Assembly (NCBI GenBank): GCA_965277805.1 | Contig: OZ255842.1 | Location: 3,296,001 to 3,360,000, forward strand | Length of the DNA stretch: 64,000 nucleotides | Direction of reading: 5' to 3' | DNA from: Candidatus Lustribacter sp. | Lineage (GTDB): Bacteria; Vulcanimicrobiota; Vulcanimicrobiia; Vulcanimicrobiales; Vulcanimicrobiaceae | Part shown: one piece after another, positions 34,941 to 56,758 of the stretch | Position numbering within the stretch: the first letter of the stretch is position 1 | How the letters are laid out: every line of letters begins with the position of its first letter | Translations under genes and position numbers: made by a program | The notes under the pieces: generated by a model | Seen by the model: only the letters and a program-made list of their open reading frames with translations | Told to the model about the DNA's origin: nothing | Database searches by the model: none

Positions 34941-34954
34941 AGGACCTTCGTCCC
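34941..34954. promoter_or_regulatory. DosR-box-like 14-bp site AGGACCTTCGTCCC
   Basis: Pseudo-palindrome, 11/14 match to GGGACTTTAGTCCC; lies between the divergent epimerase and sensor kinase. Confidence 0.55.
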
Positions 34955-35096
34955 CATCAAATTCTTGGGCACGTAAACCTTTCGCCAAGCACGTTTCCCG
35001 GCGCATACCGATGCTGTACATATGTTCTGACGTGTTCCTAAATTGCGCATGGCTAGCGACTAACCGCTCATTAACTCACTCGGCGCGGACGCAGCG

Positions 35097-37022
35097 ATGA
35101 ACTTCCGGCGCTGGCTGGCGATTCTCGTGCTCGTACCGCTCGTTCTCGTCGTCTGCACAACCGCCGGCCTCATCGCCCTCGCTCAGGCAACGCGTCAAGC
35201 CGAAGGCGACGCCCAACGCGTCTCGGAGCTCTATTCGAGCGTCTCCGAACTCACGCTGAGCCTGCTGCAATTGGAGCTGCAAGCGCGAGCGTATGTCTCA
35301 ACCGGCGATGTTAGCGATCTCGACGCCTATGAGGGCACGCGCCAAGCCTTCGACTTCCAAATGACACATCTGTACGCCGACTCGCGTCCCGAACCGGTCC
35401 TCGCAGCTCAAGTTCCGGGGTTGGAACGCCTCGCTCGGCAGACGCTCGCGCAATTGGATGCGGCCGTGCGCACCCGGCAGGCAAGCCGGCTCCCGCAAAG
35501 CGATCGCGGCGGAACGGAAATGTTCTCGGTTGCTCAAAAACAATTCGCGGACACCGCGTATCAACTCCGCGCGCGCCGTCTGGGCGGGCTCACGCACCTT
35601 TGGGACGAAGGCGCGGCCCTCATCGCAGTGGCGCTCACGTGCGGTCTCTGCGTCACGATCGTCTTGGCAATCGTGGCGCGCCGTCATCTCGCGCGCCGGA
35701 TCGAGTACGTCGAGCGCCGGGCGCACGCATACGAGACGAAGGACGATGCGGCAGCCCTTCCCCCGGTCGGCGGCGGCGACGAAATCGCCCACCTCGACGA
35801 CGCGCTGCGAACGATGGCGTCGACCATCCGCACGCGGGAATCCGAGCTGCGGGTCGCGCTGGGCGAAGCCGAGGCGGCCTCACGGGCGAAGTCGGCATTC
35901 GTCGCAACGATCAGCCACGAAATCCGGACCCCGCTCAACGGCGTGATCGGGATGAGCGAGCTGTTGGCGGAAGCCGACCTCGCGCCGCCGCTCCGCGAAT
36001 ACGTTGAAACCATCAGTACGTCGAGCAAGCTGCTGCTCGAGCTGATCAACGGCATCCTCGACTTCTCGAAGCTGTCGGCGGGGGCGCTGACGCTAAACGC
36101 CGGCCCGGTCATGGTCGAGCCGCTCGTTCGCGAAACGGCTGCGCTTTTTTCGCGGCAAGCGCGGGACGCGGGCCTGGATTTGCGCGTCGACATTGCGGCA
36201 AACGTCCCCCTGACGGTGGACGCCGACGCGTTGCGCTTGCGGCAGATTCTCGCCAATCTCATCGGAAATGCCGTGAAGTTTACGCCGGCCGGGTCCGTCA
36301 CGGTCTCGGTCGCAGGGGGCCCGATCATCGACGAACGGTCGACGCTGTGCTTCGACGTGATCGATACCGGGGTCGGAATAGACCCCTCGATGCAAGAGAC
36401 GATCTTCGAGCCCTTTCGGCAAGCCGACATGTCCACGACCCGCCGCTTCGGCGGCACGGGACTCGGACTATCGATCTCGCGCCACCTGGCCGCGATGATG
36501 AACGGCTCGATCGCGGTACGCAGCACCCCCGGCTCGGGCACGACCTTCTCCCTCAGCGTCCCGTTACGCGTCCTCTCGGCCGTTGCCGCCGCGTCGCCGG
36601 CCGGCGGCCCTCCATCGAACGCCGCCGGCGACGAGCGCCACGAAGCCGTCCTGCTGGTCGAGGACAACGAAGTCAACCAACGCGTCGCCACGCGCATGCT
36701 GCAGCGTTTGGGGCTCCACAGCGACGTCGCAGCCAACGGCAGCGAAGCGCTTGGCAGGCTGGAACGTTCGCGCTACGACCTCGTCTTCATGGATTTGCAG
36801 ATGCCGGTGATGGACGGCTTTGAAGCATCAACGGAACTGCGGCGCCGGGAGCAAGCGACCGGCGGACACGTTCCGATCATTGCAATGACCGCCAACGCGC
36901 TGCCGGAGGACCGGGAGGCCTGTTTCGCAGCCGGCATGGACGACCACGTTGCCAAGCCGGTGACGCTCGCCGAACTGCGCCGCGTCGTGCAGCGATGGCT
37001 TCCGGAACACGCCGACGCATGA
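35097..37022 (+). CDS. Hybrid sensor histidine kinase (CHASE3-like sensor, HAMP, HisKA, HATPase, REC)
   Basis: Two TM helices; [32 protein letters not shown]; receiver VEDNEVN...FMDLQMP...AKP. Confidence 0.95.
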
Positions 37023-37231
37023 AAGAAACGAAAGGATCAGCCGTGAAAATTTCTGATATCGCCCGGTTACTTGGTAGGCCGGAGGTCCAACAGCACGATC
37101 GCGCAGCTATACATCGGTGCTACTGGCGTTGCGGGTGTGAAGCCGTCAACGTCCGCGGTCTCTGTTACGAGGAGGGCTGGTCGTTCATGCCGTGCAGCCG
37201 GCATCCGTCCGCCGCCTGCGGTTCGTCCTAG
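37019..37231 (+). CDS. Small Cys/His-rich hypothetical protein
   Basis: ATGA overlap with the kinase stop (alternative GTG at 37043 with AAGGA RBS); W.CGC...C..H pattern; fills the gap exactly. Confidence 0.5.
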
Positions 37232-37788
37232 GCGTCGCCGCTGTGATCGGTTTCACGGTCGAGCACGCGGACCAGCAGCTCTGAGCGCGATTTCGTTCCG
37301 GCCTTCCGCAGAATGTTCTTCACATGGTCGCCAACCGTGCCCTCGCTGATGAACAGATCGGCCGCGATTCGGGGGCTGCTGTAGCCCTTCAGGATGAATC
37401 CGAGAACTTCGCTTTCCCGGTTGGTCAACTTGAATCTCTTGCTCGCCAATGCAAGCGAGTTACTGCGCGCCCCGATGTCCTCGAGAAACGCCGCCACGTA
37501 GCCGTCGAGCTCTCCGGTGAGCGGGACCACGCGAAGCATCAGACCGGCCCCGAGTTCTTCATAGGCCGGCTCGCGGAACGCGCCGGCCAGTTTGCGTTCC
37601 CTCAGATGCGCCAGGCTTGCCCCCAGAAGCTTGCTGTTGACCAGATTCGGCGAGGAAAATTCCACTTGACCGCTGCGGTTCACGATGAAAAATTTCGGCG
37701 CATCCCGGCGCTGCAAGCGTGCGAGCGCCCGCTCGCCACGCGAGTTCACTGGCTCCTCATATTCATCGGATCTGCGGGCGATAGACAC
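37228..37788 (-). CDS. LuxR-family HTH transcriptional regulator
   Basis: LTNRESEVL..ILKGYSS..IA..LFISEGTVGDHVKNI..K motif; no receiver domain. Confidence 0.88.
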   Translation of the reverse strand: MSIARRSDEYEEPVNSRGERALARLQRRDAPKFFIVNRSGQVEFSSPNLVNSKLLGASLAHLRERKLAGAFREPAYEELGAGLMLRVVPLTGELDGYVAAFLEDIGARSNSLALASKRFKLTNRESEVLGFILKGYSSPRIAADLFISEGTVGDHVKNILRKAGTKSRSELLVRVLDRETDHSGDA

Positions 37789-37859
37789 TGACTCAGCAAC
37801 TCTCCATTAGAACCGACCCTCGTACGGCAACAATGCTGCGCATTGTATACGGTTCCTAC

Positions 37860-37873
37860 CGCACGAACGTCCC
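37860..37873. promoter_or_regulatory. DosR-box-like 14-bp site (reverse complement GGGACGTTCGTGCG)
   Basis: About 72 bp upstream of the LuxR gene, similar to the offset of the epimerase site. Confidence 0.45.
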
Positions 37874-38148
37874 GACTCGTTGAGTAAGGCGCATTCTTTT
37901 GCCCATTCAGCGTGCCGCGAAACGCGCGTAAGGCTGGGATGGATGGCTACAGCGTAATGCTTTTGTATGGACCGTTGCAATGGACTATTGACCCAAGCAA
38001 CGCGCAGACAAATGGGCATTTTCAGTGCCAATATCCCGTGTTCGGGGGAGTGCGCGCGATATCTGGTCCCGGGTATTTAGTTACATATCTTCCTGCAACG
38101 CGACGTACCTAACGTCGCAGGTCCACCTAAATTCCTAGGAGCCTACAA

Positions 38149-38787
38149 ATGCCGCCGCAACTGACAAATCGCACGCTGATCATTGAAAGCCAAGCTCTCT
38201 TCGCGAAGGCACTGGCTCAAGTGCTCTCACTGGATTCGTCGATAGAAGTCGTCGGCGATGCCGTTTCGGTAAGCGAAGCCTACATCGCCTCGACGCGTCC
38301 GGATATTATCCTGATCGATATCGACGGCGGCCTCGTCGATCTAACCGAAGCGGTAACGTGCAGTCGCAAAGTATCGCCGAATGTGAAAATTTGCACCTTG
38401 TCGATGCACTTGCAACCCGACGTAATGCAACGTTGTCTCAACGCCGGCGTCGACGGTTATATCGTCAAGGACGTTTCGCCTAACGAATTCATGCGCGCCA
38501 TCAAATCGGTCGCATCGGGCGAAACCTACGTCGACCCGCGCATCGCCGGTCGTCTGCTGCGCAGGCGATCGAGCCCCCAGCGTTACCCCGATCCCTGCGA
38601 TCTTTCGATGCGCGAAGTCGAAGTCGTCCGGTTGATCGTCGCCGGGATGTCGAACAAGGAAATCAGTTCGAACCTGCACCTCTCCGAAAAAACGATCAAA
38701 AATCACGTCAGCCGGATCTTTACCAAGTTCAATTGTACGGCGCGCACGCAGGCAGCAGTATATGCGCTGCGCTCGGGGTTAGTCTGA
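38149..38787 (+). CDS. NarL/DevR-type response regulator (REC + LuxR HTH)
   Basis: LIDID phospho-site, YIVKD; HTH LSMREVEV...SNKEI...LSEKTIKNHVSRIF...RTQAA; AGGAG RBS. Confidence 0.93.
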   Translation: MPPQLTNRTLIIESQALFAKALAQVLSLDSSIEVVGDAVSVSEAYIASTRPDIILIDIDGGLVDLTEAVTCSRKVSPNVKICTLSMHLQPDVMQRCLNAGVDGYIVKDVSPNEFMRAIKSVASGETYVDPRIAGRLLRRRSSPQRYPDPCDLSMREVEVVRLIVAGMSNKEISSNLHLSEKTIKNHVSRIFTKFNCTARTQAAVYALRSGLV

Positions 38788-38802: not shown

Positions 38803-38816
38803 TTACCAAAAGTCCC
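38803..38816. promoter_or_regulatory. DosR-box-like 14-bp site (reverse complement GGGACTTTTGGTAA)
   Basis: About 72 bp upstream of the REC-only gene at 38888. Confidence 0.45.
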
Positions 38817-38887
38817 TTGTGCGATGCACCGCATGTGCGTAACGTCACATCGTGCATCCACCCTCAACTCGCGAAGCCTCCGGGAAT

Positions 38888-39304
38888 ATGAAGTCGATCC
38901 CACTCGGGATCATTGAGCCGCAGCGACTCTTCGCACCGTTCCTGAACCAGGTGCTATCCGAAGCCGGCTTCAGCGTCGTCATCTCGCTCGAAAGCCTTTC
39001 GCTCGACGAACTCGGGCGCAACGAACCGACGGTGGTATTCATCGATATCGACTTCATCGAAGTTGATCCGATCAATGCACTGCGCCAAATACGGCAGATC
39101 GTACCCAACGCTACGGTCTGCGCGTATACCGGCCGCGCCGACGAAGGCTGGGCGGCAGCGTGTATTCGGGCCGGCGCCAACTGCGTGATCAGCAAATCTG
39201 CTGCACCCACGGAGATCGTGGCCGGCATTCAGCGCGCGATGCGCGTCGGGTCGTACGTCGATCGCCGCTTCGACGGCGAAGACGAGTCCTCCGAAGAAAT
39301 TTAG
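38888..39304 (+). CDS. Stand-alone NarL-type receiver domain protein (no HTH)
   Basis: IIEPQ, FIDID, AGANCVISKS and GSYVDRR; similar to the REC of 38149-38787; acidic tail. Confidence 0.82.
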   Translation: MKSIPLGIIEPQRLFAPFLNQVLSEAGFSVVISLESLSLDELGRNEPTVVFIDIDFIEVDPINALRQIRQIVPNATVCAYTGRADEGWAAACIRAGANCVISKSAAPTEIVAGIQRAMRVGSYVDRRFDGEDESSEEI

Positions 39305-39340: not shown

Positions 39341-39354
39341 AGGACGTTCGACTC
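39341..39354. promoter_or_regulatory. DosR-box-like 14-bp site AGGACGTTCGACTC
   Basis: Directly upstream of the priming glycosyltransferase operon. Confidence 0.4.
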
Positions 39355-39381
39355 TCTAAGCCTCACTGTCACTGCGCTACG

Positions 39382-40875
39382 ATGGGTGCCTCTACCCGAA
39401 CGACGCAGGGACCACACGTGAGCGCAAGTGTCAGTGGAGAAGCGACCACTTCTTACCACACTCCGAGCCTAACCATTGCGCCGACCAAACGCCGGCCGAA
39501 AGTTTTCGGTCGCCGCTGGGCGGCATTGCTCGTCGTCACCGACGTCACGATGTTTCTCTTGGCAGCCCTGACGGCAACCGAAATCGTCAAAGCCGGCAGC
39601 TACGTGCCGGCACCGGCCGACAGCATCCTGGTATCGACGATGATCTATGCGGCCTTCTGGCTCATCATCTTCGAACGTCTGGGACTGTATCGCCAATCGT
39701 TCGCGACGACGGTCAAGGACGAAATCTACTATACGGCCGCGGCGCTCGCGCTCGGCGCGCTACCGCAGTTTCTGCTCTTCACCTTCGTGCCGTCCGTATC
39801 GTCGTCGCGCTCCGTGCTGCTATTATCCGTGGCCATCGCTTCGGTGACAGTCGGGACCACTCGAGCCCTATTGCACCTTTCGCGCGCTCGTCTCAGCGAA
39901 CAATTTCCGCCGCGCATCGCCGTCGTCGGTCACGCCTCGCGGCTCGACTCGGCGTTGCAATCGCTCAATTTTCCGCCCAGCACGCGCGTGCTGCCCTTGA
40001 TCGAGCCCGACGTCGAGTCGACCTTGCTCGATCTCAACCTCACGCAAGACGAAAACCTCAACCGCGTGCCGTGGCTGCGCCAAGCGCGGGCCTGGGGCGC
40101 CGACACGATCCTCATGACCGAGATCCTGCCGCCGCACGTGTTGCCGCTACTGCTGGAAACCACGGCCCGGGACCGCATTAAAATCGCGTTTGCTCCGCCG
40201 CGCCTGTGCGCCCATGCCTATGAGTACACGCTCCGCACCGACGGTCATCAAGCGCTCATCGTGCCCTTCCGGCTCAGCGCGTGCCGTCCGATTGCGCGCG
40301 TCACCAAGCGCGCCTTCGATCTCGTTCTTGCCTCGGTCGCACTGATCGTCGCGACGCCGGTGATGCTGGCGGCGGCGGTGGCTATTTTGATCGATTCCGG
40401 CCACCCCATTTTCTTCACCCAGTCGCGCGTCGGGCGCAACGGCCAGGTGTTCGAAGTCCTGAAATTCCGCACGATGCGCGTCGACGCCGAAGGCGTGTCC
40501 GGTCCGGTTTGGGCGAGCGCGCGCGATCCGCGCAAAACTCGCCTCGGCTCGTTCTTACGCCGCACGAGCATCGATGAACTACCGCAGATCTTGAACGTGC
40601 TGCGCGGTGAGATGTCGATCGTCGGTCCGCGACCGGAACGCCCGGTTTTCGTGGAAGACTTTCGCCGCCAGCTGCCGCGCTACGACGAACGCCACCTCGT
40701 CCGCCCGGGGATCACCGGTTGGTCGCAAGTACACATGAAACGCGTGCTGTCCGTGAGCGACGTTTCGGAGAAACTAAGCCACGATCTGTTTTACGTCGAG
40801 AACTGGTCCTTCTTCATGGACGTGTCCGTCGTCGTGAAGACGGCAGCGGAGTTTTTGTTTCACCGGGCGGCGTAA
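39382..40875 (+). CDS. Priming sugar transferase (WcaJ/WbaP-type polyprenyl glycosylphosphotransferase)
   Basis: N-terminal TM helices; KRAFD, KFRTM, DPR.T..G.FLRRTSIDELPQ, GEMSIVGPRPE and PGITGWSQV motifs. Confidence 0.95.
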   Translation: MGASTRTTQGPHVSASVSGEATTSYHTPSLTIAPTKRRPKVFGRRWAALLVVTDVTMFLLAALTATEIVKAGSYVPAPADSILVSTMIYAAFWLIIFERLGLYRQSFATTVKDEIYYTAAALALGALPQFLLFTFVPSVSSSRSVLLLSVAIASVTVGTTRALLHLSRARLSEQFPPRIAVVGHASRLDSALQSLNFPPSTRVLPLIEPDVESTLLDLNLTQDENLNRVPWLRQARAWGADTILMTEILPPHVLPLLLETTARDRIKIAFAPPRLCAHAYEYTLRTDGHQALIVPFRLSACRPIARVTKRAFDLVLASVALIVATPVMLAAAVAILIDSGHPIFFTQSRVGRNGQVFEVLKFRTMRVDAEGVSGPVWASARDPRKTRLGSFLRRTSIDELPQILNVLRGEMSIVGPRPERPVFVEDFRRQLPRYDERHLVRPGITGWSQVHMKRVLSVSDVSEKLSHDLFYVENWSFFMDVSVVVKTAAEFLFHRAA

Positions 40876-42191
40876 TGCCGCGGTCCGGAGCGCCCGGCCT
40901 AGCCAGCCAAGCAGGGCTGGTCTTCTTCGGAAATTCGAGCGGCTACCTCGTTGCGATCGTGACCGGCATCGTCGTGGCGCGCACGCTCGGCCCCGCCGGC
41001 AAAGGCGTCGCGGCATATGCCATGCTCGTAATGTCCGTGTTTACGACGTTCGGCAGCGGCGTACAGTCCGGCATCATGCATGCTTGCGGACGTAACGCGC
41101 AGCCGCAAATCATCGCCTACGGAACCGCCCTGCGGCTGCTCGGGCTCGTGATGCTTCCGGCCGCCCTCGCCCTCGGTGTGGCCGCCGTGGTCGACCCGCA
41201 ACACGCCTCGTTGGCGTATGTGGCCTGCGCGGTCCCGTTTGCCGTCTACTGTCAGATCGCCAATGCCATCTTCATGCTGCACGGCGACATCCGTTCGACC
41301 GTCATCCAAGCCGCGATACCGCCGTTCGGCGTCGCCCTATTCACGATTCCGGCGCTGACGCTCCTTCACGGTGGTTTATCGGCGGTATTGGGTATTTGGT
41401 CCCTCATGTTTGCGGTGTCCGCCTGCTACGCGATGGTCCGACTGGGCCACTACCTGCCCCCCCTCACGCTTGCGGGCGGCCGCGACGCGCTCAGGGACCA
41501 GGCCTTGTACGGGCTAAAAAGCGGCGCGACATCGCTGGCTGGTTTTCTCAACTTGCGCGTCGACGTCTTTGTGATCGGCGCGATGCTCGACGCACGTACG
41601 CTGGGTATATACAGCCTCGCAGTGGCGACCGGCGAGCTGATGTGGCAGTTGAGCCGCCCGCTCGCGTTCAGCGCGATGGGCCGCGTCGCGGCCGCCGACC
41701 GCGAGCAGGCGATAGCGCTGACCTCCACCATCACGCGTTCAATCGTCGCGCTCGAAGCCGGACTCGGTGCACTGCTCTTTCTCGTCGCCCCCGCGGCAAT
41801 TGCGCTGGTGTATGGCCGGCAATATGCCGAATCGGCCACGATCGTTCGCGCGCTCATCCCCGGGCTTATCCTATATGCTGCGCAAATGCCGCTCGGGTTC
41901 TTCGTTTCGGCCAAAGATGGGAGGCCGTTCGCAATGCTGACGGTTCAAACGGTCTCTGTCTTTGCATGTGCGGCAATCAGCGTCCTCACGATCCCGTATC
42001 TGAACGTCCTCGGCGCCGCACTTGCTACCGTCGTGACCTATGGCGCAACCTGGTTTGCGACAGCGCTCCTCTTTGCGCACAGCACCGGCACGCCGTTGGC
42101 ACGCTTCACGTTCGTACGTGGCCCCGACCTCGAGCACGTCGGGCAGATGCTGCGGAGGCTCCTGCAGCCTCGCCGGGTCGCGGCGCAGTGA
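40875..42191 (+). CDS. Wzx-type oligosaccharide flippase
   Basis: TAATG coupling; ARTLGPAGKG, LRVDVF and LGIYSLA motifs; multi-TM. Confidence 0.85.
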   Translation: MPRSGAPGLASQAGLVFFGNSSGYLVAIVTGIVVARTLGPAGKGVAAYAMLVMSVFTTFGSGVQSGIMHACGRNAQPQIIAYGTALRLLGLVMLPAALALGVAAVVDPQHASLAYVACAVPFAVYCQIANAIFMLHGDIRSTVIQAAIPPFGVALFTIPALTLLHGGLSAVLGIWSLMFAVSACYAMVRLGHYLPPLTLAGGRDALRDQALYGLKSGATSLAGFLNLRVDVFVIGAMLDARTLGIYSLAVATGELMWQLSRPLAFSAMGRVAAADREQAIALTSTITRSIVALEAGLGALLFLVAPAAIALVYGRQYAESATIVRALIPGLILYAAQMPLGFFVSAKDGRPFAMLTVQTVSVFACAAISVLTIPYLNVLGAALATVVTYGATWFATALLFAHSTGTPLARFTFVRGPDLEHVGQMLRRLLQPRRVAAQ

Positions 42192-43462
42192 TGCGCCGGT
42201 ATTTCGTTTGGGCGCTCCTCGCGTGCGTGATGGTCCTCGTTGCAATGGGCGCGGCAGTGCTCTCTCCGTCTTCTTCCGCCGGCTCCGCGCTGAGAATCGC
42301 CGCGCGCGCGACCAAGGGCGCTGCCGCCCGGCTGATTTCCACGTTAGGGACCTCGGGCAGCGCCGCGTCGGCAGCAGCGTCCGCGCAGGGTTCGACCCTG
42401 ACCGTTACGCCCGGTGGTCCCGGCCCGGGCGGCTTACAGAATGGACTAGAATATGCGGCGACCTTCCGGCCATATGGCGCAAATTCGGTATGGAACAGGC
42501 GCATCTCGGACCACCCGCTCATCGCGCAATTCAGCGCCGGCGTCCTCGAGCATCAATTTCCCGCCGGGAAAAACGACCGCCCGTTCCGTTCGAACGAAGC
42601 GGGCATCTATGACTACGGTCATCCAATTTTTTACGCGGCGGCGTCGGATCCGCTGGTGAACACCCGCTGCAACCAGTACTGCGGAACCTTTCCGCCGCGA
42701 ATTCGCATACCAGCCAAAGCACGGCCGGCCGGAGGCACCGACGCGCACTTCGAAATCATCCAGCCCGACGGTACCGACATTGGGATGTGGGCGACCAATG
42801 GCACCCCCAAGCGCGATTGGCAGTCCGGCGATACTGTCACCGCTGGCAATATCTCGAATTGCGGCAGCTTCTTCACCGGACCTGGCACGATGCCGGCTGG
42901 CCCGGCTCCGACTGCCGGCGGCGCGTGTCTGCGTGCCGGTGAAATCACTGCGGCAGAACTTCTCGCAGGGCACATCAATCACGCGCTCTTTGCCGCCGGT
43001 GCGTGCGCGCACGGCCGCCAATACCCGGCCGTGCCAGAAGCGTCGACGAACGAATGCACGAGCGGGATCGGTCCACCGTTGGGAGCGCGCGAGTGGTACG
43101 ACGTGCCATGTACTGATACGCAAGCGAATTCGCGTTTGCGGCCCTGGGAGAAAGCCATCCTGTGCGCGCTACACGATTATGGCGCGTACATGGAAGACAG
43201 CGGCGGCGGCGGTGGTACGTACTTCACCGGAATCGGCGTCGACGGAACCGAGTCAACCGAATCGGCGTTCGACTTCGGGCAGCCCGACCCGTTTTCAGCG
43301 CTTGCTTCGCAGGGCTGGTACTCGATCACGATTCCGAACGCCGACAAACAAGGCACGGCACGCGCGCGCTGGGTCGGCGCCGACGTTTGGAATCCACCCG
43401 GCGTCGACTTTCCTCATCACATACATTGGCTTGCGCCTTGCTCCGCGCAAGGGACCTGCTAG
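42191..43462 (+). CDS. Membrane-anchored/secreted Cys-rich hypothetical protein (paralog of 49366-50649)
   Basis: TGATG coupling; N-terminal hydrophobic helix, Ser/Ala linker, then a domain ending HIHWLAPCSAQGTC. Confidence 0.85.
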   Translation: MRRYFVWALLACVMVLVAMGAAVLSPSSSAGSALRIAARATKGAAARLISTLGTSGSAASAAASAQGSTLTVTPGGPGPGGLQNGLEYAATFRPYGANSVWNRRISDHPLIAQFSAGVLEHQFPAGKNDRPFRSNEAGIYDYGHPIFYAAASDPLVNTRCNQYCGTFPPRIRIPAKARPAGGTDAHFEIIQPDGTDIGMWATNGTPKRDWQSGDTVTAGNISNCGSFFTGPGTMPAGPAPTAGGACLRAGEITAAELLAGHINHALFAAGACAHGRQYPAVPEASTNECTSGIGPPLGAREWYDVPCTDTQANSRLRPWEKAILCALHDYGAYMEDSGGGGGTYFTGIGVDGTESTESAFDFGQPDPFSALASQGWYSITIPNADKQGTARARWVGADVWNPPGVDFPHHIHWLAPCSAQGTC

Positions 43463-43509
43463 GCGGGCCGTACCGGGCCCGGCACGAAATGAAGACCGGT
43501 CCAATGCGA

Positions 43510-46862: not shown

Positions 46863-46901
46863 GATAAGGGAATTCTAAACCTTCGCGAACGCTCGCTTAG
46901 A

Positions 46902-46948
46902 GTGCCGGACGGCCCCGCACCGCCGGGCCGCCTTGGGGCTTTTGGGCC
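46902..46948. promoter_or_regulatory. Two DosR-box-like 14-bp sites (rc GGGCCGTCCGGCAC at 46902-46915; GGGGCTTTTGGGCC at 46935-46948)
   Basis: In the divergent GT2/acyltransferase intergenic region; both keep C5 and G10. Confidence 0.35.
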
Positions 46949-47005
46949 CTCCCACAGCCCGCGAAAAATGCGACACTTCCCCTAGCCGACGACGGGGAGG
47001 GCAGT

Positions 47006-49398: not shown

Positions 49399-50649
49399 CC
49401 AGTGAATGTGATCGACGAAATCGACGCCGCTGGGATTCCAGGGGCTTGCACCGACCCAGCGCGTCCCCTGCGCGCTGCCGTACGACTGCACCTTGATCGA
49501 CGACCAGCCTTGCGCGGCCAGCGTTGCGAAAGGGCTGATATAGTTCGGCCCATTGAAGTCATACCACGGTTCTTCGTCTTCGACGCCGGCGCCGGTTCCG
49601 GTAAAGTACGTGCCGCCACCGCCGTTATCGCCCATGTAGCCGCCGTAGACGTTGAGCGCGCAGAGAATTGCCTTCTCCCAGGGGTGCAGCGCAGCGTTTG
49701 CCTGGGTCGTCGAGCACGGGACGTCATACCATTCGCGTCCGCCGAGGGGCGGTCCGACGCCGCTCGTGCACTGCTGCGTCGAGGCGCCGTTTTCCGCCGG
49801 ATACTGCGCACCGATCGCGCATTGGCCGGTGATGATGATCGCATGATTGATCTGACCGGCAATCAACTCCGCCGCCGTTATGATGCCGGCATTGGTGCAG
49901 TAACCGGCCGCGGTCGGACCCGGTCCCGCGCTGAGCCAACCGGAAGCGCTTACGATCGAGCCGCAGTTGGCAGTATTGGACGCAGAAAGCGTTTGCCCCG
50001 ACTGCCAGTTACCGGCGGGCTTCGTTACGCCCCACATGCTGATGTCCGTGCCGTCGGGCTGCACCACGTCCAAATGTGAATCGCTTCCGCCCGCGGGCCG
50101 CGCGACGGCAGGGATGTGAATCGTTGCGGGCATGCCGCCGTTGTCGGGCGCGCCGCAATAGAGCGTGCACTTCACCGAAACGAGCGGGTCGGTAGCCGTT
50201 GCGATGAAACGCGGATGGCCGTAGTCGTAAATGCCGGCCTCGTTGGCCCGGATCGTCTGGGTGTTCAGGCCCCCAGGAAACTGATTTGCAACGATCGCTG
50301 CGCTCGAGGCAAGGTATGTCGGATGCGCTGAGACTTTGTTATTGAAGGGCGAGGTCGACGCGTACGGCGTAAAACTGACCGGGTAGTCCTGCGCGTTTAC
50401 AAAAACGGCCGTGCTAAACGCTGTCGCCGACCCCCCGGTTGCCGTCGCGGCCGGCGCCGGCCCCTGCGTCGGCGTCGCGCCGGCTACCACCGGCGTCGTG
50501 GTTGGTGAATTGGCCGGCGTCGTCACTGGAACCGTACCGCCGGTTGCCGGCAGGGCTTGCGGGGCGCTCGTGCCGCCTCCGCCCCCACCGCACCCGGCAA
50601 GGAGGCAAAGCAGCAAGAGACGACTCGTATGTGCGGGTCCTAAAAGCAT
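49366..50649 (-). CDS. Cys-rich hypothetical lipoprotein (paralog of 42191-43462)
   Basis: Lipobox LLAG-C followed by a Gly run; Thr/Pro-rich linker; domain ending HIHWLAPCSAQGTC; start approximate. Confidence 0.85.
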   Translation of the reverse strand: MLLGPAHTSRLLLLCLLAGCGGGGGGTSAPQALPATGGTVPVTTPANSPTTTPVVAGATPTQGPAPAATATGGSATAFSTAVFVNAQDYPVSFTPYASTSPFNNKVSAHPTYLASSAAIVANQFPGGLNTQTIRANEAGIYDYGHPRFIATATDPLVSVKCTLYCGAPDNGGMPATIHIPAVARPAGGSDSHLDVVQPDGTDISMWGVTKPAGNWQSGQTLSASNTANCGSIVSASGWLSAGPGPTAAGYCTNAGIITAAELIAGQINHAIIITGQCAIGAQYPAENGASTQQCTSGVGPPLGGREWYDVPCSTTQANAALHPWEKAILCALNVYGGYMGDNGGGGTYFTGTGAGVEDEEPWYDFNGPNYISPFATLAAQGWSSIKVQSYGSAQGTRWVGASPWNPSGVDFVDHIHWLAPCSAQGTC

Positions 50650-50822
50650 ACTTGCGCATGGTGCCTGATGCCCCGCCAAAACACCGACAGACAAGCAAGC
50701 AAACTTTACACAACCATTCCCCGAACGGGCCTTGCAATTTCGAAAATGTCCTGCACGCTTGCCTGCACGCTCGAATGGAGAATAAACAAACGAGCCCGGC
50801 CCGTCAATAGTCGCGCCGCGCG

Positions 50823-50836
50823 GGGACTTTTAGCCC
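50823..50836. promoter_or_regulatory. DosR-box-like 14-bp site GGGACTTTTAGCCC
   Basis: In the divergent lipoprotein/GT2 intergenic region, 37 bp upstream of the GT2 start. Confidence 0.5.
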
Positions 50837-50872
50837 TGTAGCAGGCGGGTGGCATTCCTTACACTTTGATCG

Positions 50873-51880
50873 ATGGAGACGGAGAGCGCCCCCGAACTGA
50901 GCATCGTCGTCCCGGTCTTCAACGAAGAAGGGAACGTCGGCGAACTCGTTCGGCGGATCAACGGCATTTTGACCGCCCTGCCGGGACGGCCGGCGTTCGA
51001 GATGTGCTTCGTCAACGACGGGAGCAGTGACGGCACCCTGGCGCAATTGCAGCGCGCAGCGGAAGAGTATCCGGGCGTCGTGATCGTCAATCTCTCGCGC
51101 AACTTCGGGCATCAAATCGCCGCCACCGCCGGCCTCGACATCGCCCGGGGCGATGCGGTCGTCCTCATGGACGGCGACCTGCAAGATCCGCCCGAACTCA
51201 TCGCCCAATTCGTTGCCAAGTGGCGCGAAGGCTACGACGTCGTCTACGCGACTCGGCGCACGCGGCGCGGCGAGAGCGTGTTCAAACTCGTCACGGCGAA
51301 GGTCTTCTACCGCGTCATCAAGGCGATGACCAACGTATCCATACCGGTCGATACGGGCGATTTCCGATTGATGAGCCGCCGCGTCGTCGACGCACTCGGC
51401 CGCACCCGCGAGCGTCACCGCTTCTTACGCGGACTGGTCAGCTGGGTCGGCTACCGTCAAATCGGCATCGAATACGATCGGGCCGAACGCCACTCCGGCC
51501 AAACGAAATATCCGCTTTCCAAGATGCTCAAGTTTGCGATCGACGGGATCACATCGTTTTCACAAATCCCGTTGCGCATATCCACCTATCTTGGGTTCGC
51601 GACGAGCACGTTTGCCTTTCTTTACGCCATCGTCGTGCTCGCCTTGCAGTTCGCTCATCTGAACTTTCCGGGTTACACCTCGACGATGCTGGCCATCCTC
51701 TTCATCGGCGGCATTCAGCTCGTCGGAATCGGCATTTTAGGCGAGTATGTCGGCCGCATTTACGACGAGATCAAAGCGCGTCCGCTCTATCTCATCGCCG
51801 ACCTCCAGCGCTCGCCGGCACGCGTCAACCTCACGGTGCAGACATACGCTCGCGATGCCCGTGAAGTGATGGTGAGTTGA
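50873..51880 (+). CDS. GT2 polyprenol-phosphate glycosyltransferase (GtrB/ArnC-like)
   Basis: VPVFNEE, NDGSSD, LSRNFGHQ, MDGDLQDPP, TGDFRLM, two C-terminal TM helices and GEYVGRIY..K.RP.Y. Confidence 0.93.
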   Translation: METESAPELSIVVPVFNEEGNVGELVRRINGILTALPGRPAFEMCFVNDGSSDGTLAQLQRAAEEYPGVVIVNLSRNFGHQIAATAGLDIARGDAVVLMDGDLQDPPELIAQFVAKWREGYDVVYATRRTRRGESVFKLVTAKVFYRVIKAMTNVSIPVDTGDFRLMSRRVVDALGRTRERHRFLRGLVSWVGYRQIGIEYDRAERHSGQTKYPLSKMLKFAIDGITSFSQIPLRISTYLGFATSTFAFLYAIVVLALQFAHLNFPGYTSTMLAILFIGGIQLVGIGILGEYVGRIYDEIKARPLYLIADLQRSPARVNLTVQTYARDAREVMVS

Positions 51881-53556
51881 CCACTGCGGCGGCGGTCCGG
51901 TTCCGTGGTCTTTCGCGCGACGCCGTCTTAACCAACACCTTCAGGGTGCTCGCACTGGCCGTCATCGTGGCCGGAATCCTGTTGCGTTTTTCGGGCTTGG
52001 AGCGAAAGCTTTACAGTTACGATGAAGCGACGACGTCGCTGCGCGCCGCGGGCTACACGCTCGAAGACTACTACGGCGGCGCCTTCGACGGCCGCGTCGT
52101 GCCGAATTCATCGTTCCTCGCCTATCAGCACGTCACCGGGGCGAAAGACGCTGCCGCTGCCGTCCGTTCGCTGGCAGTCGAAGATCCGCAGCATCCGCCG
52201 CTGTACTATCTCCTCGAGCGTGCTTGGTCGAACGCATTCGGCGATACGGTCGCGCAACGCCGGGCCGTGTCGGCGGTCGCGGGAACGCTGTTGCTCGGTG
52301 CCGTCTTTTGGCTCTGCGTCGAAATTTTCGGATCGGTCGATGCAGGTCTGATCGGCGCAGCGCTGATGGCCGTTTCACCGTTCTTCGTCATCTATTCGCA
52401 GCAAGCGCGGGAGTACGCGCTCTGGGGGCTTTGCATCGCGGTCGCCAGCGCCGTTCTCGTGCGGGCGATGCGCGGCGAAACACTGAGCTGGCTCTGGTAC
52501 GCTGCGGCTGCGGCACTCGGACTGTATACCGATCTGATTTTCGCCTACGTTCTGGCCGGGCACGCGCTCTACGTGGCCGCCGTTGCCGTGCACGAGCGCA
52601 CGGTTCGCCCTGTCGTGCGTTTTGCGATTGCGGCGGCCGCCGCGCTCGCGGCATACGCGCCGTGGTTGCTGGCGGTCTATCGCGGGCGCAACCTGCTCAC
52701 GAACAACGACTATCTCGGCGCGGCGTTGCCGGCGAAGATCTTCGCGCTCAAGTGGATCTTCAATACCGGAGCGGTCTTCTTCGACCTCGACTACCAGCAC
52801 GTCGCCGCGGCGGTGCTGCTCGTGCCGATCTTCGCACTCGTGCTCGCCGCCTTCGTCGCCTTGGCGAAATACGCGCCGGCGCGCATTTGGGTGCCGGTAT
52901 ACGCACTCGGCGCGACGACCGCGCTGGCATTTCTGCTGCCCGATCTCGTGCGGCACGAAAGCCGGTCGACCGTCGCGCGCTACCTCCTGCCGGCGTGGCT
53001 TGCGATCGAATTGGCCGTCGCCTACCTCCTCGCCGGCGGCTTGCAGAACGCGCGGCCGTTTCCGCGGCGGCTGATGTCACTGCTCGCATTCTGCGCGCTC
53101 GCCGTGTGCGGCCTCGCCTCGGTGTCGGCCGACGCGCGCGGAGAGACGAGTTGGGCCGAGGGCAAGAGCATTGCCGGGCTCGGACCGATATCGCGCATCG
53201 TCAACGCTACCGCGCATCCGACGGTGGTCTACATTGCCGATCCCGCGCGATTCGATTTCGCGTCGCTCGCGCTGAGCAACGAACTGCGGCCCGACGCCGG
53301 CGTGCAGCAATTCGTCTTCGGCCGCAGCGGGGCGCGCGTCGCCGGCACGCCGGGTACGTTCGTACTCGACCCGACAGCGCGCGTACGCGAATCGCTCGCG
53401 CAATCCGGCCTCGTTTTACGGCAGGTCTATGCCGACGGCGACACCGGTCCCGCGGCTATTCGCGACCTGCGAGCGCAGACCGCGGTTCTGCGGCGCGATC
53501 AGGGTGAAGACGTCAGTGGCTTATCGCTCTGGAGCGCGGCGCGGAGGGCGCCATGA
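51877..53556 (+). CDS. GT-C (GT39/ArnT/PMT_2-like) membrane glycosyltransferase
   Basis: YSYDE, QHPPLYY and YSQQAREYAL motifs; multi-TM. Confidence 0.85.
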   Translation: MTTAAAVRFRGLSRDAVLTNTFRVLALAVIVAGILLRFSGLERKLYSYDEATTSLRAAGYTLEDYYGGAFDGRVVPNSSFLAYQHVTGAKDAAAAVRSLAVEDPQHPPLYYLLERAWSNAFGDTVAQRRAVSAVAGTLLLGAVFWLCVEIFGSVDAGLIGAALMAVSPFFVIYSQQAREYALWGLCIAVASAVLVRAMRGETLSWLWYAAAAALGLYTDLIFAYVLAGHALYVAAVAVHERTVRPVVRFAIAAAAALAAYAPWLLAVYRGRNLLTNNDYLGAALPAKIFALKWIFNTGAVFFDLDYQHVAAAVLLVPIFALVLAAFVALAKYAPARIWVPVYALGATTALAFLLPDLVRHESRSTVARYLLPAWLAIELAVAYLLAGGLQNARPFPRRLMSLLAFCALAVCGLASVSADARGETSWAEGKSIAGLGPISRIVNATAHPTVVYIADPARFDFASLALSNELRPDAGVQQFVFGRSGARVAGTPGTFVLDPTARVRESLAQSGLVLRQVYADGDTGPAAIRDLRAQTAVLRRDQGEDVSGLSLWSAARRAP

Positions 53557-54383
53557 TCGCCGCACACTCGTTCCTGCCGCTGGTGTCGATCGTCGTTCCG
53601 ACGAAAGACCGGCCCGAAGAGATCGCGCGCATGCTCCGTTCGGTGCGTGCACAGCCGACCCGGCCCCTCGAAGTCATCGTGGTGGACCAATCGGCTCGCG
53701 CCTACGAACTCGAGCCGTTTCCGGAGCTTTTGCACGTGCACGACCCGCGAATCGGCGGCGCCTCGGCGGCACGCAATTACGGCATCGGGATCGCCGCCGG
53801 AGAAGTCATCCTATTTCTCGACGACGACGTCGTGCTCGAATCGGACTGCGTTGGCGAAATCGCGCGCGCGTTCGCGTCACGCCCCGAACTCGTGGGCGCC
53901 CAGTGCGCGATTCACAATCCGTGGGACGACGCGCCGCCCTCGCTCTACGACGTTTCGACGCGCATCTTCGAACACGGCTTCTTCGATTCGCGGCCGAAGA
54001 AGCGTCGCGGCGAGGCGATTCCGCGCTTGATCGACGGTTTGGCCTCGGCCTACCGCTACGATCTGCTGCGTTACGAAAACTTCGATGAAAACTTGCCGGG
54101 ATATAGCCTGGCCGAAGATTGGGATCTCACCAAGCGCGCGGCCCGTCACGGCGCGCTCACGATCGTGCCCGAGGCGCGCGTGCGCCACCTGCACTCATCC
54201 ACCAATCGCCACGATGCGACGGCCTACATGGCGCTGCGCCGCACCAACATTCTCTATCTCTACGAAAAACTCGAGGCGGCGCGCGACCTGCGCAACCGGT
54301 TCTGGAAACAGTGGTGGATCTTCGGCGAAACCTTGCGCGGGCTCAGGCTCGGGCGGAAGCGACGGCAACGTCGTCTTCGCTGA
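53553..54383 (+). CDS. GT2 glycosyltransferase
   Basis: SIVVPT, VVDQS, ARN.G, FLDDD and FDE...Y..AED motifs. Confidence 0.9.
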   Translation: MIAAHSFLPLVSIVVPTKDRPEEIARMLRSVRAQPTRPLEVIVVDQSARAYELEPFPELLHVHDPRIGGASAARNYGIGIAAGEVILFLDDDVVLESDCVGEIARAFASRPELVGAQCAIHNPWDDAPPSLYDVSTRIFEHGFFDSRPKKRRGEAIPRLIDGLASAYRYDLLRYENFDENLPGYSLAEDWDLTKRAARHGALTIVPEARVRHLHSSTNRHDATAYMALRRTNILYLYEKLEAARDLRNRFWKQWWIFGETLRGLRLGRKRRQRRLR

Positions 54384-55599
54384 CGGTCTCCACCCGGCGC
54401 AACACCGGCTCGATCGCGATGCTCCGGTACGCCGCTAACAGCTCCGACCCGATCGAGCGCCAATCGTACTCGGTAACGCGCCGGTTGGCCGCTGACACGA
54501 GCGTATAGCGCGCGCCTTCCGACGACAACAGCCCCGCGAGCGCATCGGCAAAATTAAGCGGTTCGTCGCGGACCATCAACTCGACCCCCGGACTGCACTT
54601 GAGACCGAACGCGCCGGCGGTCGTCGTGAGCACCGGACGCCCCGCAGCCCACGCCTCGAGGATGCGCAGCCGCGTTCCGCTGCTCGCGACGATCGGCGCC
54701 GCAACGACGGTCGCCGCTGCCAGATGTTCGTCCATCGATGCCGGGTTTGCCACCGCCTCGACGTTCGGGTAGCGCTGCAGCTCCGCTTCGAGCGCCGGGC
54801 TCATGCGTCCGGCGACGCGCACGACGACGAACGGAATGATCGCGCGCAGGCGCGGCAAGCCGGTGCGCAAGAACCAGCGCAACCCGAGGACGTTCGGGCG
54901 CCAATCCATGCTGCCGGTGATCAGCACGGTGCACGGGTCGGGCTGAACCGAACGGAGCGGCGCGTAATGCGCGATGTCGACGCCGTTGGCTACGATTGCC
55001 GCTTTCGACCGCACGCCCGGTGCGAAACGCTCGAAGTCGGCCAGATCCCCTTCGGCACACGTCGCGACGAGTGCCGCGCGATCGATCAGCGCCCGTTCTT
55101 GGCTGCGCACCCGCATCGCATCGAACATCAGCGCAACGCGCGCCGCCGGCGATTCGGTGAGCGCGCGCCGGCTCAACAGCGCGGACTCGCAATTGTGAGC
55201 GTTGTAGACGATCGGGATCGCGTCCAGGCGCGGCAATGCGGCCCGCATCGGCAAGTCGGTTTGAATCGCAACATAGGGAAAGCGTCCGAGGCGATTGGCA
55301 ACGTACTCGCGCAGCGCCGGACTCGCCCAGCCGGCGGTGAGCGTCGATTCGCCTGGCAGCACCGCACGCGCGAGACGGCCGAAACCGCCGCGTGAATTCG
55401 TACCGCGCGGGAAGCTCGCGTAATCGTCGACGATGGCGGCGAAATCAGCCGGGATCGCGCCCGGCTCGTCGGCAACGACGAGATCGACCGCATAGCGCTT
55501 CGAGAGCGCATCGATCATCCAGTAGTTGCGCAGCAATGCACCGCCGTTACGCAACCATGGCGCTTGACCGCACAGGAATAAAACTCGGGGCTTAGCCAT
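54343..55599 (-). CDS. GT4 glycosyltransferase
   Basis: NAHNCE, NGVD, GSMDWRPN and GTRLRILEAWAAG motifs; start at MAKPRVLF. Confidence 0.9.
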   Translation of the reverse strand: MAKPRVLFLCGQAPWLRNGGALLRNYWMIDALSKRYAVDLVVADEPGAIPADFAAIVDDYASFPRGTNSRGGFGRLARAVLPGESTLTAGWASPALREYVANRLGRFPYVAIQTDLPMRAALPRLDAIPIVYNAHNCESALLSRRALTESPAARVALMFDAMRVRSQERALIDRAALVATCAEGDLADFERFAPGVRSKAAIVANGVDIAHYAPLRSVQPDPCTVLITGSMDWRPNVLGLRWFLRTGLPRLRAIIPFVVVRVAGRMSPALEAELQRYPNVEAVANPASMDEHLAAATVVAAPIVASSGTRLRILEAWAAGRPVLTTTAGAFGLKCSPGVELMVRDEPLNFADALAGLLSSEGARYTLVSAANRRVTEYDWRSIGSELLAAYRSIAIEPVLRRVETVSEDDVAVASARA

Positions 55600-56686
55600 A
55601 ACGTTCTCCGGGCGCATAGAGTGCGAGATACGATTGGTGCTGACGGCGAATGTGGAAGTCGCGCTCGAAACGCGCTCGAGCTGCGCAACCCAATCGCCGG
55701 CGAAGTTCCGGATCGTGCCGCAGCGTGAGGAGCGCATCGCGCAGCGCGGCCGGCTGCCGCGCCGGCACCAGCAGCGCGCTCTCTCCGTCCGTCACCGCGG
55801 CGCGAGTTGCGCCGACGTCGGTTGCCACGATCGCGCAGCCCGCGCGCATGGCCTCGAGTAATGCGAGGCTCAAGCCCTCCGCGTGGGAGGCCTGAACGTA
55901 GACGTCCAGGCCCGCGAGATAGCCTTCGGACTGCTCGATATAGCCGGCGTAGTGCACGTTGCTGCCGGCAGCCTGTACGCGCGAGGTCAGGGTCCCCGCT
56001 CCGGCCACCGCAAAGACGGTGTCCGGATCGGGAAAGTCCGCGGCAACTGCCAAGAAGTCGAGGATGCCCTTCTCCTCGTTGAGGCGGCCGAGCGTTCCGG
56101 CCACGAAACTGCCGATGCGAACGGCGGGCGCGCGCGTTGCCGCCGCATCGGAATCCGCGACCGCGTTGAGCACGTGCCGGCGCGTTCCGAGCGGTGTAAT
56201 CCGCGGCAGCATGCCGGCGTCGGGTACCGTCGTTACATCGCTGAACATCGCGGTCCAGCGGTCGACCGTATTGTAGAGCCGGAGCTTTGGTCCGGTGTCG
56301 ACCCAACCGTGACACGTGCTGACGATGCGGACGCCGCGGATGCGGCCGGCGAGCCGCGCCGCACGCGCGATGATGTTCGCGCGGTAACCGTGCGAGTGAA
56401 CGACGTCGACGGGCCGGCGCGCGAAGTGTTGACCGAGCTTCGTGATCGCGCTGTCGAAACCGTGCGAGTAGTGATTGCTCAAGCTCGCGACCGGAAATCC
56501 CTCAGCGGCAAGCACCAGTCCGAGCTCGCTCGGAGAGAAGGTGACCAGCGACGGTTCGACGTTTCCGCTTGCACGCTGTTCGCGCATGAGCAACGCGACG
56601 ACACGTTCTTTGCCCCACAAATAACGATTGCCGCCGTTCATTGCATCGACGAGGTGGGCGACGCGAAGCGCCCTCGATTCCGCCAC
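55592..56686 (-). CDS. GT4 glycosyltransferase
   Basis: HSHGYR, TCHGW, GRL..EKG and EGLSLALLEAM..G...VATDVG motifs. Confidence 0.92.
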   Translation of the reverse strand: MAESRALRVAHLVDAMNGGNRYLWGKERVVALLMREQRASGNVEPSLVTFSPSELGLVLAAEGFPVASLSNHYSHGFDSAITKLGQHFARRPVDVVHSHGYRANIIARAARLAGRIRGVRIVSTCHGWVDTGPKLRLYNTVDRWTAMFSDVTTVPDAGMLPRITPLGTRRHVLNAVADSDAAATRAPAVRIGSFVAGTLGRLNEEKGILDFLAVAADFPDPDTVFAVAGAGTLTSRVQAAGSNVHYAGYIEQSEGYLAGLDVYVQASHAEGLSLALLEAMRAGCAIVATDVGATRAAVTDGESALLVPARQPAALRDALLTLRHDPELRRRLGCAARARFERDFHIRRQHQSYLALYAPGERYG

Positions 56687-56744
56687 TCGCTCAGACTAGC
56701 GTAGGCCCCGTCAACGGCCAACGGCCGGAAGATGCAAGAGTACG

Positions 56745-56758
56745 GGGTCTTTCGGCAC
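56745..56758. promoter_or_regulatory. DosR-box-like 14-bp site GGGTCTTTCGGCAC
   Basis: In the divergent GT4/GT2 intergenic region. Confidence 0.45.

Follow-up and report, generated by a model that had tools for sequence, protein, structure and literature searches.

Organization of the locus

A polysaccharide biosynthesis cluster in the genome of Candidatus Lustribacter sp. was examined for a recurrent 14-bp motif that resembles the box of the regulator DosR (DevR) and for the protein that may read it. The genome (G000) is a single contig of 5.53 Mb with ~64% G+C, and the window, i.e., the whole stretch of DNA analyzed, comprises 64,000 nucleotides (nt) (G000:C1:3296001-3360000). Pfam assignments placed the cluster between 33.9 kb and at least 60 kb of the window. 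Its first part holds genes for an NAD-dependent epimerase (33939-34880, - strand), a hybrid histidine kinase with CHASE3, HisKA, HATPase_c, and receiver domains (35097-37022, + strand), a GerE-only protein referred to here as LuxR186 (37228-37788, - strand), a NarL/FixJ-family response regulator of 212 amino acids (aa) with Response_reg and GerE domains, which is the candidate binder (38149-38787, + strand), and a single-domain receiver protein (Response_reg; 38852-39304, + strand). Polysaccharide biosynthesis genes follow at 39382-57877 in about seven transcription units on both strands and encode a priming sugar transferase (Bac_transf), a flippase, a Wzy-like polymerase, a GINT1_N-like protein, four GT2 and two GT1 proteins, a PMT_2-like protein, and an acyltransferase; three proteins in this interval had no Pfam family. 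The original prediction for this region, made from the DNA letters alone, had proposed that a DevR-like regulator governs a capsule or biofilm program rather than dormancy genes, and the glycan genes found by Pfam in the locus and its relatives bore out that part of it.

Two further genomes served for comparison, namely, G005, a congener, and G003, a very close relative. The G005 locus is syntenic but rearranged, with 10 polysaccharide genes in synteny at 50 to 72% amino acid identity, and the regulator is 71% identical between G000 and G005. The gene for the single-domain receiver is syntenic with that of the regulator in G005 and in a second family. The G005 locus lacks the hybrid histidine kinase, which hence falls outside the conserved module, and has a prolyl oligopeptidase gene upstream of the regulator.

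A conserved 14-bp motif in the promoter regions

Motif searches were performed with a purpose-written small expectation-maximization (EM) motif finder, which was run on eight gaps per genome. For the eight G000 gaps, the search returned GGGACTTTTGGCCC with a score of 85.0, compared to 76.0 ± 3.1 for 20 mononucleotide shuffles (maximum, 81.6). The same motif was returned from the eight G005 gaps alone (GGGACTTTTGTCTC), with a score of 87.9 versus 75.9 ± 2.6 for 20 shuffles (maximum, 79.8), and the joined gaps of the two genomes scored 165.3 versus 121.0 ± 2.6. This unsupervised recovery from the G005 locus and the retention of sites in orthologous gaps confirmed the conservation that had been expected of orthologous promoters. 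Only these de novo searches, a scan of G000 with a G005-only matrix, and the reverse scan are free of hand-picking and circularity. A first matrix, for which six G005 sites were picked by eye, gave 79 genome matches of at least 13 bits, 6 of them in the 26-kb locus compared to ~0.37 expected, and was used as a pointer only.

When the G005-only matrix was applied to 1559 intergenic regions of G000, the best matches of five of the eight gaps ranked in the top 0.1 to 0.3%. The highest rank (top 0.1%) was that of site A (AGGACCTTCGTCCC, 34941..34954, + strand; 15.6 bits), which lies in the divergent gap between the epimerase and hybrid histidine kinase genes. Sites D (AGGACGTTCGACTC, 39341..39354, + strand), upstream of the priming sugar transferase gene, and G (GGGACTTTTAGCCC, 50823..50836, + strand), in the divergent gap between a gene for a 442-aa family-less protein (- strand) and GT2b (+ strand), were both in the top 0.2%. 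Ranks in the top 0.3% were obtained for sites F (GGGGCTTTTGGGCC, 46935..46948, + strand), in the divergent gap between the GT2a and acyltransferase genes, and H (GGGTCTTTCGGCAC, 56745..56758, + strand), at the divergent start of GT1b and GT2d. Site B (TGGACTATTGACCC, 37981..37994, + strand), in the divergent gap between LuxR186 and the regulator and 168 bp upstream of the regulator start, was in the top 1.2%. The top 7% rank of site C (GGGACTTTTGGTAA, 38803..38816, - strand), between the regulator and the single-domain receiver gene, amounts to weak support; this site scored 9.0 bits with the G005-only matrix and 15.2 bits with a 15-site matrix in which it is itself contained. The best match in gap E, between the Wzy and GINT1 genes, was at 44968 and ranked at 74%, i.e., nothing. 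The claim that every operon-start or divergent gap from 34.9 to 56.8 kb has one site therefore held for seven gaps of eight and failed for the Wzy/GINT1 gap, where a site at 44969 had been listed.

In the reverse test, a G000-only matrix placed seven of the eight G005 gaps in the top 5.2% of 1551 nonlocus regions of G000, and two of them were exceeded by none. No G005 gap is orthologous to gap A, F, or G, and the high ranks of these three with the G005-only matrix therefore indicated that the match between genomes is not simple promoter homology. Orthologous footprints were detected in three pairs (39341 and G005 site e, 56745 and G005 site g, and 37981 and G005 site b), despite protein identities of 50 to 72%. 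The G005 gap orthologous to that of site D has GGGACGTTCGGCTC, the gap orthologous to that of site H has GGGTCTTTTGCCTC, and the counterpart of site B, AGGTCTATTGACTC, lies upstream of the LuxR186 ortholog. Comparison with G003 detected 3 changes in the 98 positions of the seven supported sites, and each of these fell on a variable position of the motif. Over their whole length, five of the eight gaps diverged by 9 to 12% and the other three by 1 to 4%. Sites B, F, and G were identical in G003, as was site D, although its gap diverges by 11.7%, and site A was changed only at variable positions 6 and 11.

The consensus of 15 sites (7 from G000 and 8 from G005) was rGGaCtTTyGnCyC. In its left half, position 2 was G in all 15 sites, position 3 was G in 14, and position 5 was C in 14; T was present in 13 sites at position 7 and in 15 at position 8, and positions 7 and 8 were TT in 13 sites. 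The right half was less well conserved, with G at position 10 in 14 sites, C at position 12 in 11, and C at position 14 in 14. This asymmetry may in part be an effect of orienting each site by its better half. The DosR box has the consensus TTSGGGACTWWAGTCCCSAA in the available part of PMC2275270. Compared with the palindromic form of the box given there, GGGACTWWAGTCCC, the motif agreed at positions 2, 3, 5, 10, 12, and 14 (11 to 15 of the 15 sites) and differed at positions 7 and 8 (TT, not WW), at position 9 (Y, not A), and at position 11, which was mixed. The likeness is in the outer G-G-G-n-C ... G-n-C-C-C elements, which have the same 5-4-5 spacing.

The regulon looks local: the pattern RGGNCBTTYGNYHC, which was built from these sites, had 29 matches in the G005 genome, with 6 of these within 22 kb of the locus. 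The word GGGACTTTT occurred 7 times in the 5.53-Mb G000 genome, twice in locus gaps (38803 and 50823). The original prediction had noticed no motif in the first 34 kb of the window, which was roughly correct: the 15-site matrix gave 6 matches of at least 10 bits in positions 1 to 34000, all within crude gene calls and the best at 13.4 bits.

Several further observations were made at individual sites. Site H lies inside the longest GT2d reading frame (start, 56732); the alignment of the GT2d protein to G005 starts only at residue 29 of this frame, so the true GT2d start may lie downstream of the site. A block, TGCTTGC(T/A)TCGTGGTC, was present downstream of site H (window 56769-56784) and of site g (G005, L032, ~101-116); the two site-to-block distances differ by 16 nt, which is not a multiple of three and makes coding conservation unlikely. 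A perfect inverted repeat, GCGACGT-N5-ACGTCGC, was found at 38099-38117, 32 bp upstream of the regulator start codon. It includes the listed site 38105rc. G003 retains both arms and differs at two bases of the loop, and the repeat could represent a separate operator or a hairpin in the 5' untranslated region. Reading of the 14-bp sites themselves as terminators or hairpins was rejected, as their self-complementarity does not extend beyond 4 to 5 bp and a generic scan put no terminator on them.

The local NarL/FixJ-family regulator as candidate reader

The regulator at 38149-38787 gave Pfam scores of 43.4 bits for Response_reg (cutoff, 30.2) and 72.9 bits for GerE (cutoff, 23.5), and its full-length PDB matches included VraR, DevR, NarL, and DesR. 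It has the NarL/FixJ architecture of an N-terminal receiver and a C-terminal GerE/LuxR helix-turn-helix (HTH). The original prediction had matched its EKTIKNHVSR helix to the EKTVKN of DevR, and a HMMER alignment did place EKTIKN on these residues, with the equivalents of K179, K182, and N183 identical. According to the available portions of PMC4082495 and PMC13486717, these three DevR residues contact bases, reading GGGACT and TGTCCC. Residues N167, K168, and T180, for which the available portion of PMC13486717 gives backbone contacts, also align as identical. The helix LSEKTIKNHVS was kept in 20 of 21 aligned regulators, and the exception differs where its frame appears broken.

The receiver pocket was atypical. 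In all 21 aligned regulators, the usual DD is replaced by E[SGK]Q (by DR in one); the Asp, Ser, and Lys residues of the pocket are retained. The pocket reads IIESQ in the regulator and IIEPQ in the adjacent single-domain receiver, and more distant orthologs have Gly or Lys at that position.

Distribution of the motif among Eremiobacterota

The 15-site matrix was run on 66 Eremiobacterota loci (354 kb) fetched around homologs of the regulator; these come from related genomes and are not independent. Sixty-seven matches of at least 11 bits were detected, or 0.189 per kb, compared to 0.0535 per kb in the G000 genome. Among the 59 loci with full flanks, 26 had a match of at least 11 bits located 20 to 350 bp upstream of the regulator, whereas ~1.04 would be expected at the G000 genome rate; the position of site B agrees with this cluster. 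A second cluster was found ~1.45 kb downstream of the regulator in 18 of the 59 loci, within the divergent gap of GT87-like and PMT_2-like glycosyltransferase genes. Only 15 of 60 matches fell outside both clusters. The clustering of matches at the regulator and in the GT87/PMT_2 gap indicated that the association of regulator, motif, and envelope glycan genes is conserved.

In the GT87/PMT_2 gap of distant relatives (L060-L100, ~4525-4660), a full site precedes a conserved ATGGT(T/C)C block, whose center lies ~20 bp downstream of the site center; a TTGGC-like -35 element and TATAAT come next, in a tandem arrangement. The right half of the site is consistently G[GA]TTC in this distant group, which is not the complement of GGGAC. 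A motif search upstream of 28 regulator orthologs yielded conserved CCC-N7/8-GGGAT and ATATGGGnCTTTCCC blocks, which in families f2 and f3 keep a constant spacing to TGnTATAA-type -10 boxes; these are related elements and were rejected as instances of the same 14-mer. The promoters of the f2 loci hold GGGA/TCCC arrangements that resemble the motif but differ from it. The 28 upstream regions included locus L020 (genome G036), on which no claim rests.

Promoter geometry and proposed mechanism

The sites were examined for -10-like hexamers at the distance expected of an activator. On the side facing LuxR186, site B is followed by TTGCAA, 18 nt, and TACGCT (37951-37956, - strand). Site C is followed on the + strand by TTGTGC (38817-38822), 17 nt, and TAACGT (38840-38845), site D by TCTAAG, 17 nt, and TACGAT (39378-39383), and site G by TGTAGC, 17 nt, and TACACT (50860-50865). 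A spacing of 16 nt and the hexamer TACAAT, at offset 22, were found for G005 site e. At site F, CTCCCA and 17 nt precede GACACT (46972-46977), a hexamer that deviates from the strict TAnnnT. In total, 5 of the 15 sites (B, C, D, and G of G000 and e of G005) had a strict TAnnnT at offset 22 to 24, compared to 12 of 588 matrix matches elsewhere in the genome and 7 of 131 intergenic ones. Site A had no TAnnnT at this offset on either side, and site H had no -10-like hexamer there.

The -10-like hexamers at 38840 and 50860 end only 6 to 7 nt before the annotated starts (GTG at 38852 and ATG at 50873, the latter 7 nt away), and either the transcripts would be leaderless or the true starts would lie further downstream. 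The single-domain receiver has an in-frame ATG at codon 13. On the opposite strand at site G, the generic promoter scan listed TTGACG-17-TATTCT (50807..50779), 16 nt from the site, and site G may serve both directions.

Together, these features suggest a model in which the locus carries a locus-specific 14-bp operator composed of two inverted GGGnC-type half-sites, four bases apart, with a T-rich, nonpalindromic center. The reader would be a dimer of the locally encoded NarL/FixJ-family regulator. The abutment of the sites on weak -35-like hexamers with TAnnnT 23 nt downstream suggests activation: if TAnnnT is the -10 element, the site would span -49 to -36, with its center near -42.5, and would replace a poor -35. 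The regulator would then recruit RNA polymerase in a class II type of activation, turning on the polysaccharide operons along with the genes for LuxR186 and the adjacent receiver and, probably, its own gene. Transcription starts on the + strand would be expected at about 38852, 39390, 46984, and 50872. We put the probability of this reading, a conserved operator that is read by a dimer of the local regulator and activates the polysaccharide operons, at roughly 60%; the motif, its enrichment and conservation, and the conserved recognition helix were observed directly, while we infer the binder, where transcription starts, whether the effect is positive or negative, and the input.

Evidence weighing against the proposed reading

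A number of results count against this reading or against the form in which it was originally proposed. The first group concerns the motif. The G000 score of 85.0 was also compared with those of 40 random sets of real intergenic sequence of equal lengths (79.4 ± 3.6; maximum, 88.9), and 4 of the 40 reached it. The expected enrichment over background was therefore not borne out in G000 alone, for which the motif evidence is suggestive, not significant. The gene calls were made with a crude GC3-based caller (4609 genes in G000), so that "intergenic" is approximate, and the 15-site matrix includes the G000 sites, whose ranks under it are circular. In contrast to the palindromic TWWA in the available part of PMC2275270, the center of the motif is TTTY. 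Only 1 match of at least 11 bits was present in the 66 kb of family f2 loci (L035-L038), and the 14-mer form is hence not universal.

The original site list was also reduced. All ten of its 14-mers exist where, and on the strand on which, it placed them; six were supported (34941, 38803rc, 39341, 46935, 50823, and 56745), and the other four (37860rc, 38105rc, 44969rc, and 46902rc) were at background level. In G003, these four had 5 changes in 56 positions. With the matrix from hand-picked G005 sites, 46902 scored 5.2 bits and 46935 scored 13.7 bits. In the gap at 37789-38148, the G005-only matrix preferred 37981 (TGGACTATTGACCC), which the list had missed, over 37860 and 38105. When the loose dyad GGGACNNNNGTCCC was used as a yardstick, only three of the listed sites were close, with 1 mismatch for 34941 and 2 each for 37860 and 50823. 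Up to 3 mismatches to this dyad are found at 279 sites of the window and up to 4 at 1775, which puts the weaker listed sites at chance density by that yardstick; with 1775 sites at up to 4 mismatches, mismatch counting was too permissive and was rejected as a test.

Promoter geometry and the identity of the reader raise further difficulties. Ten of the 15 sites lack TAnnnT at the expected distance, and a generic sigma-70 scan listed none of the promoters proposed here downstream of the sites. In other genera, the site centers appear to lie near -56.5 at the regulator promoter and near -66.5, with a second half-site 20 bp nearer, at the PMT_2 promoter. The regulator is no closer to DevR (105.7 bits) than to VraR (112.5 and 111.9 bits), and LiaR- and VraR-type chains outrank DosR when only the DNA-binding domain is compared. 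The proposal of a DevR-like regulator consequently stands with respect to the three base-contacting residues and falls with respect to overall relationship, and the sequence comparisons indicate that the protein is no ortholog of DevR. EKTVKN is also present in another solved relative, 7x1k, so the Lys/Lys/Asn triad alone does not predict a GGGAC box. A complete phospho-acceptor pocket is not present, the second acidic residue being missing in all 21 aligned regulators, and the dependence on acetyl phosphate proposed for the regulator is therefore doubtful. With such a pocket, classical phosphorylation would probably not be the input, and control through a ligand or a partner protein appears as likely. 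Overall, the original prediction was partly confirmed as an observation and partly supported as an interpretation.

Two other candidate binders are encoded in the genome. LuxR186, next to the regulator, is a possible alternative. In addition, G000 has a paralogous regulator (C1:2713260-2713874) that is 67% identical, with an identical recognition helix. The surroundings of the paralog (G000:C1:2708000-2720000, L119) have a lower G+C content (54 to 61%); it lies upstream of LrgA/LrgB-like genes, and a second GerE-only protein, with an HD_5 (HD-GYP-type) protein after it, is encoded nearby. There was no second site cluster at the paralog, with only 3 matches of at least 10 bits in the 20 kb around it. 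One of these, a strong match (15.6 bits), was found inside its own coding sequence.

Alternative readings

LuxR186 could be the reader of the motif, either by itself or, like RcsA with RcsB on capsule promoters, paired with the regulator in a heterodimer, in which case the strong GGGAC half would bind one partner and the weaker half the other. We consider this unlikely, although it deserves consideration on several counts. An LuxR-type HTH gene lies beside the regulator in G000, in G005, in family f2, and in many distant loci. The box is asymmetric, as described above for its TT center and better-conserved left half and for the right half of the distant group, although part of the asymmetry can stem from the orientation of the sites. 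The available text of PMC7913699 describes RcsB as working with auxiliary factors. For LuxR186, Pfam detected only GerE, and a model made with AlphaFold2 had a predicted local distance difference test (pLDDT) value of 74.3 and a predicted template modeling (pTM) score of 0.45. The best Foldseek matches of this model were the ligand-sensing proteins VqmA and EL222, with E values of 7e-5 to 4e-4 but template modeling (TM) scores of only 0.30 to 0.37; with modest confidence, the N-terminal part is a PAS-like domain, joined to an HTH. Besides the weakness of this structural match, the recognition helix of LuxR186 speaks against it as the reader. The protein has EGTVGD at the position of the DevR EKTVKN and is without both Lys residues of the DosR triad, and its homologs beside the regulator in many Eremiobacterota loci differ in this helix ([SA]E[SG]T[VA]xDH), whereas the motif persists. 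Furthermore, 8 of the 18 loci L041-L058 keep the upstream site without an LuxR186-like HTH gene within 2.5 kb, leaving the regulator as the common denominator. The LuxR-type neighbor is ~340 aa long in other families (L035-L038, L059, and L093) and ~190 aa long in G000, G003, and G005, and the short form retains only the domain adjoining the HTH.

A more elaborate version, which we regard as a long shot, is that the regulator would be a pseudo-receiver factor independent of phosphorylation, reading the strong GGGAC half of an intrinsically asymmetric box, and the PAS-like LuxR186 would read the other half, the two forming a ligand-gated, RcsAB-like heterodimer conserved across Eremiobacterota. 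Such a heterodimer would be the master switch of envelope glycan synthesis, and the single-domain receiver, with its similarly atypical pocket, would serve as decoy or titrator.

The regulator could instead act at these sites as a repressor or antiactivator, with the sites overlapping or flanking core promoters and the locus kept silent until a signal frees the protein. The sites lie 28 to 60 bp from annotated start codons, so that leaders of normal length would mean overlap with core promoters, and two-thirds of them are without a -10 at activator distance, as counted above. However, where a -10-like hexamer is present, the site lies upstream of it and takes the place of a poor -35, and in other genera good TATAAT or TTGnnn promoters lie downstream of the sites, which are at about -56 to -66. 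Repression thus appears distinctly improbable compared with activation by the regulator.

GGAAC-type elements are the -35 boxes of extracytoplasmic function (ECF)-type sigma factors. The motif might accordingly be a core promoter element of this kind rather than an operator, given that the sites are close to gene starts and that GGGACTT resembles such a box. This reading was rejected as very improbable. A second conserved half is present four bases away, as in dimer sites (G10 and C14, each in 14 of 15 sites), and there is no conservation 16 to 17 nt downstream of GGGAC. Relative to the downstream gene, the sites can face either way (site C is inverted), and no sigma factor gene was detected by Pfam among the 32 window proteins scanned.

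That the sites have no function, and that G+C-rich 14-mers are alike by chance or by shared promoter ancestry, is hardly credible: G000 alone is within the null range, loose-dyad matches abound in the window, and orthologous promoters (D/e and H/g) could share sequence by descent, but gaps without a G005 ortholog rank at the top with the G005-only matrix, the reciprocal test also holds, matches cluster by position in 59 loci from several genera, and divergence from G003 is lower inside the sites than around them.

Relationship to known systems

The system proposed here, with the local regulator as reader and activator, shares with DosR/DevR a NarL/FixJ-type regulator, the base-contacting Lys/Lys/Asn residues, and the outer spacing of the box. 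In the available part of PMC13486717, the DosR box at hspX is centered at -43.5 next to a suboptimal -35; here, the site would apparently lie beside a weak -35, with a center near -42.5. The locus has no DosS/DosT-type kinase (the rest of the genome was not searched); its only kinase is the CHASE3-HisKA-HATPase-REC hybrid, which the G005 locus lacks. The targets are glycosyltransferase and polysaccharide export genes, not hypoxia genes, and the receiver is without the second acidic pocket residue. Judged by these sequence features, the system is not a member of the DosR system, since orthology, kinases, regulon, and acidic pocket all fail.

RcsB together with RcsA controls capsule (cps) promoters of enterobacteria. 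The locus resembles this arrangement in that a NarL-family regulator is tied to a capsule or exopolysaccharide cluster and a receiver-less LuxR-type protein is encoded alongside, and the promoter of the auxiliary gene would carry a site (site B toward LuxR186). It differs in having a box of unrelated sequence and a PAS-like domain in LuxR186, and the match of the regulator to RcsB is weak (38.8 bits).

VpsT of Vibrio cholerae and CsgD are LuxR-type matrix regulators whose receiver-like domains are not phosphorylated, and W[FLM][TS]R is the cyclic di-GMP motif of the VpsT-type receiver-like domain. A receiver-like domain joined to a LuxR HTH, an atypical phospho-acceptor pocket, and apparently direct action on polysaccharide operons are common to these proteins and the regulator. 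In contrast, the regulator retains the receiver residues Asp, Ser, and Lys, and it has no Trp among its 212 aa and hence no W[FLM][TS]R motif. Similarity to the VpsT structure 3kln was mostly confined to the HTH (36 to 38 bits).

A local NarL-family regulator with a dyad operator is an expected kind of system. The Eremiobacterota (WPS-2) have almost no cultured members, and a literature search on transcriptional regulation in this group, in which some papers were seen as titles or abstracts only, found no paper. The locus would provide a concrete, testable regulator-operator pair with a small, locus-bound regulon for a cell envelope polysaccharide. It would also suggest that a DosR-type reading head, in which Lys, Lys, and Asn read a GGGAC half-site, operates outside Actinobacteria in a quite different program, and the operator could predict coregulated glycan genes in metagenome-assembled genomes of Eremiobacterota.

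Further observations on the locus

Many orthologs of locus genes (e.g., Bac_transf, acyltransferase, PMT2, and GT1b) align to G003 (L033/L034) as 2 to 3 pieces in different frames, which looks like assembly frameshift errors rather than biology. The 442-aa family-less protein (49366-50694) matched the G003 counterpart of the 423-aa family-less protein encoded at 42191-43462 with 50 to 55% identity. At least the 423-aa protein has a signal-like N terminus and is probably secreted.

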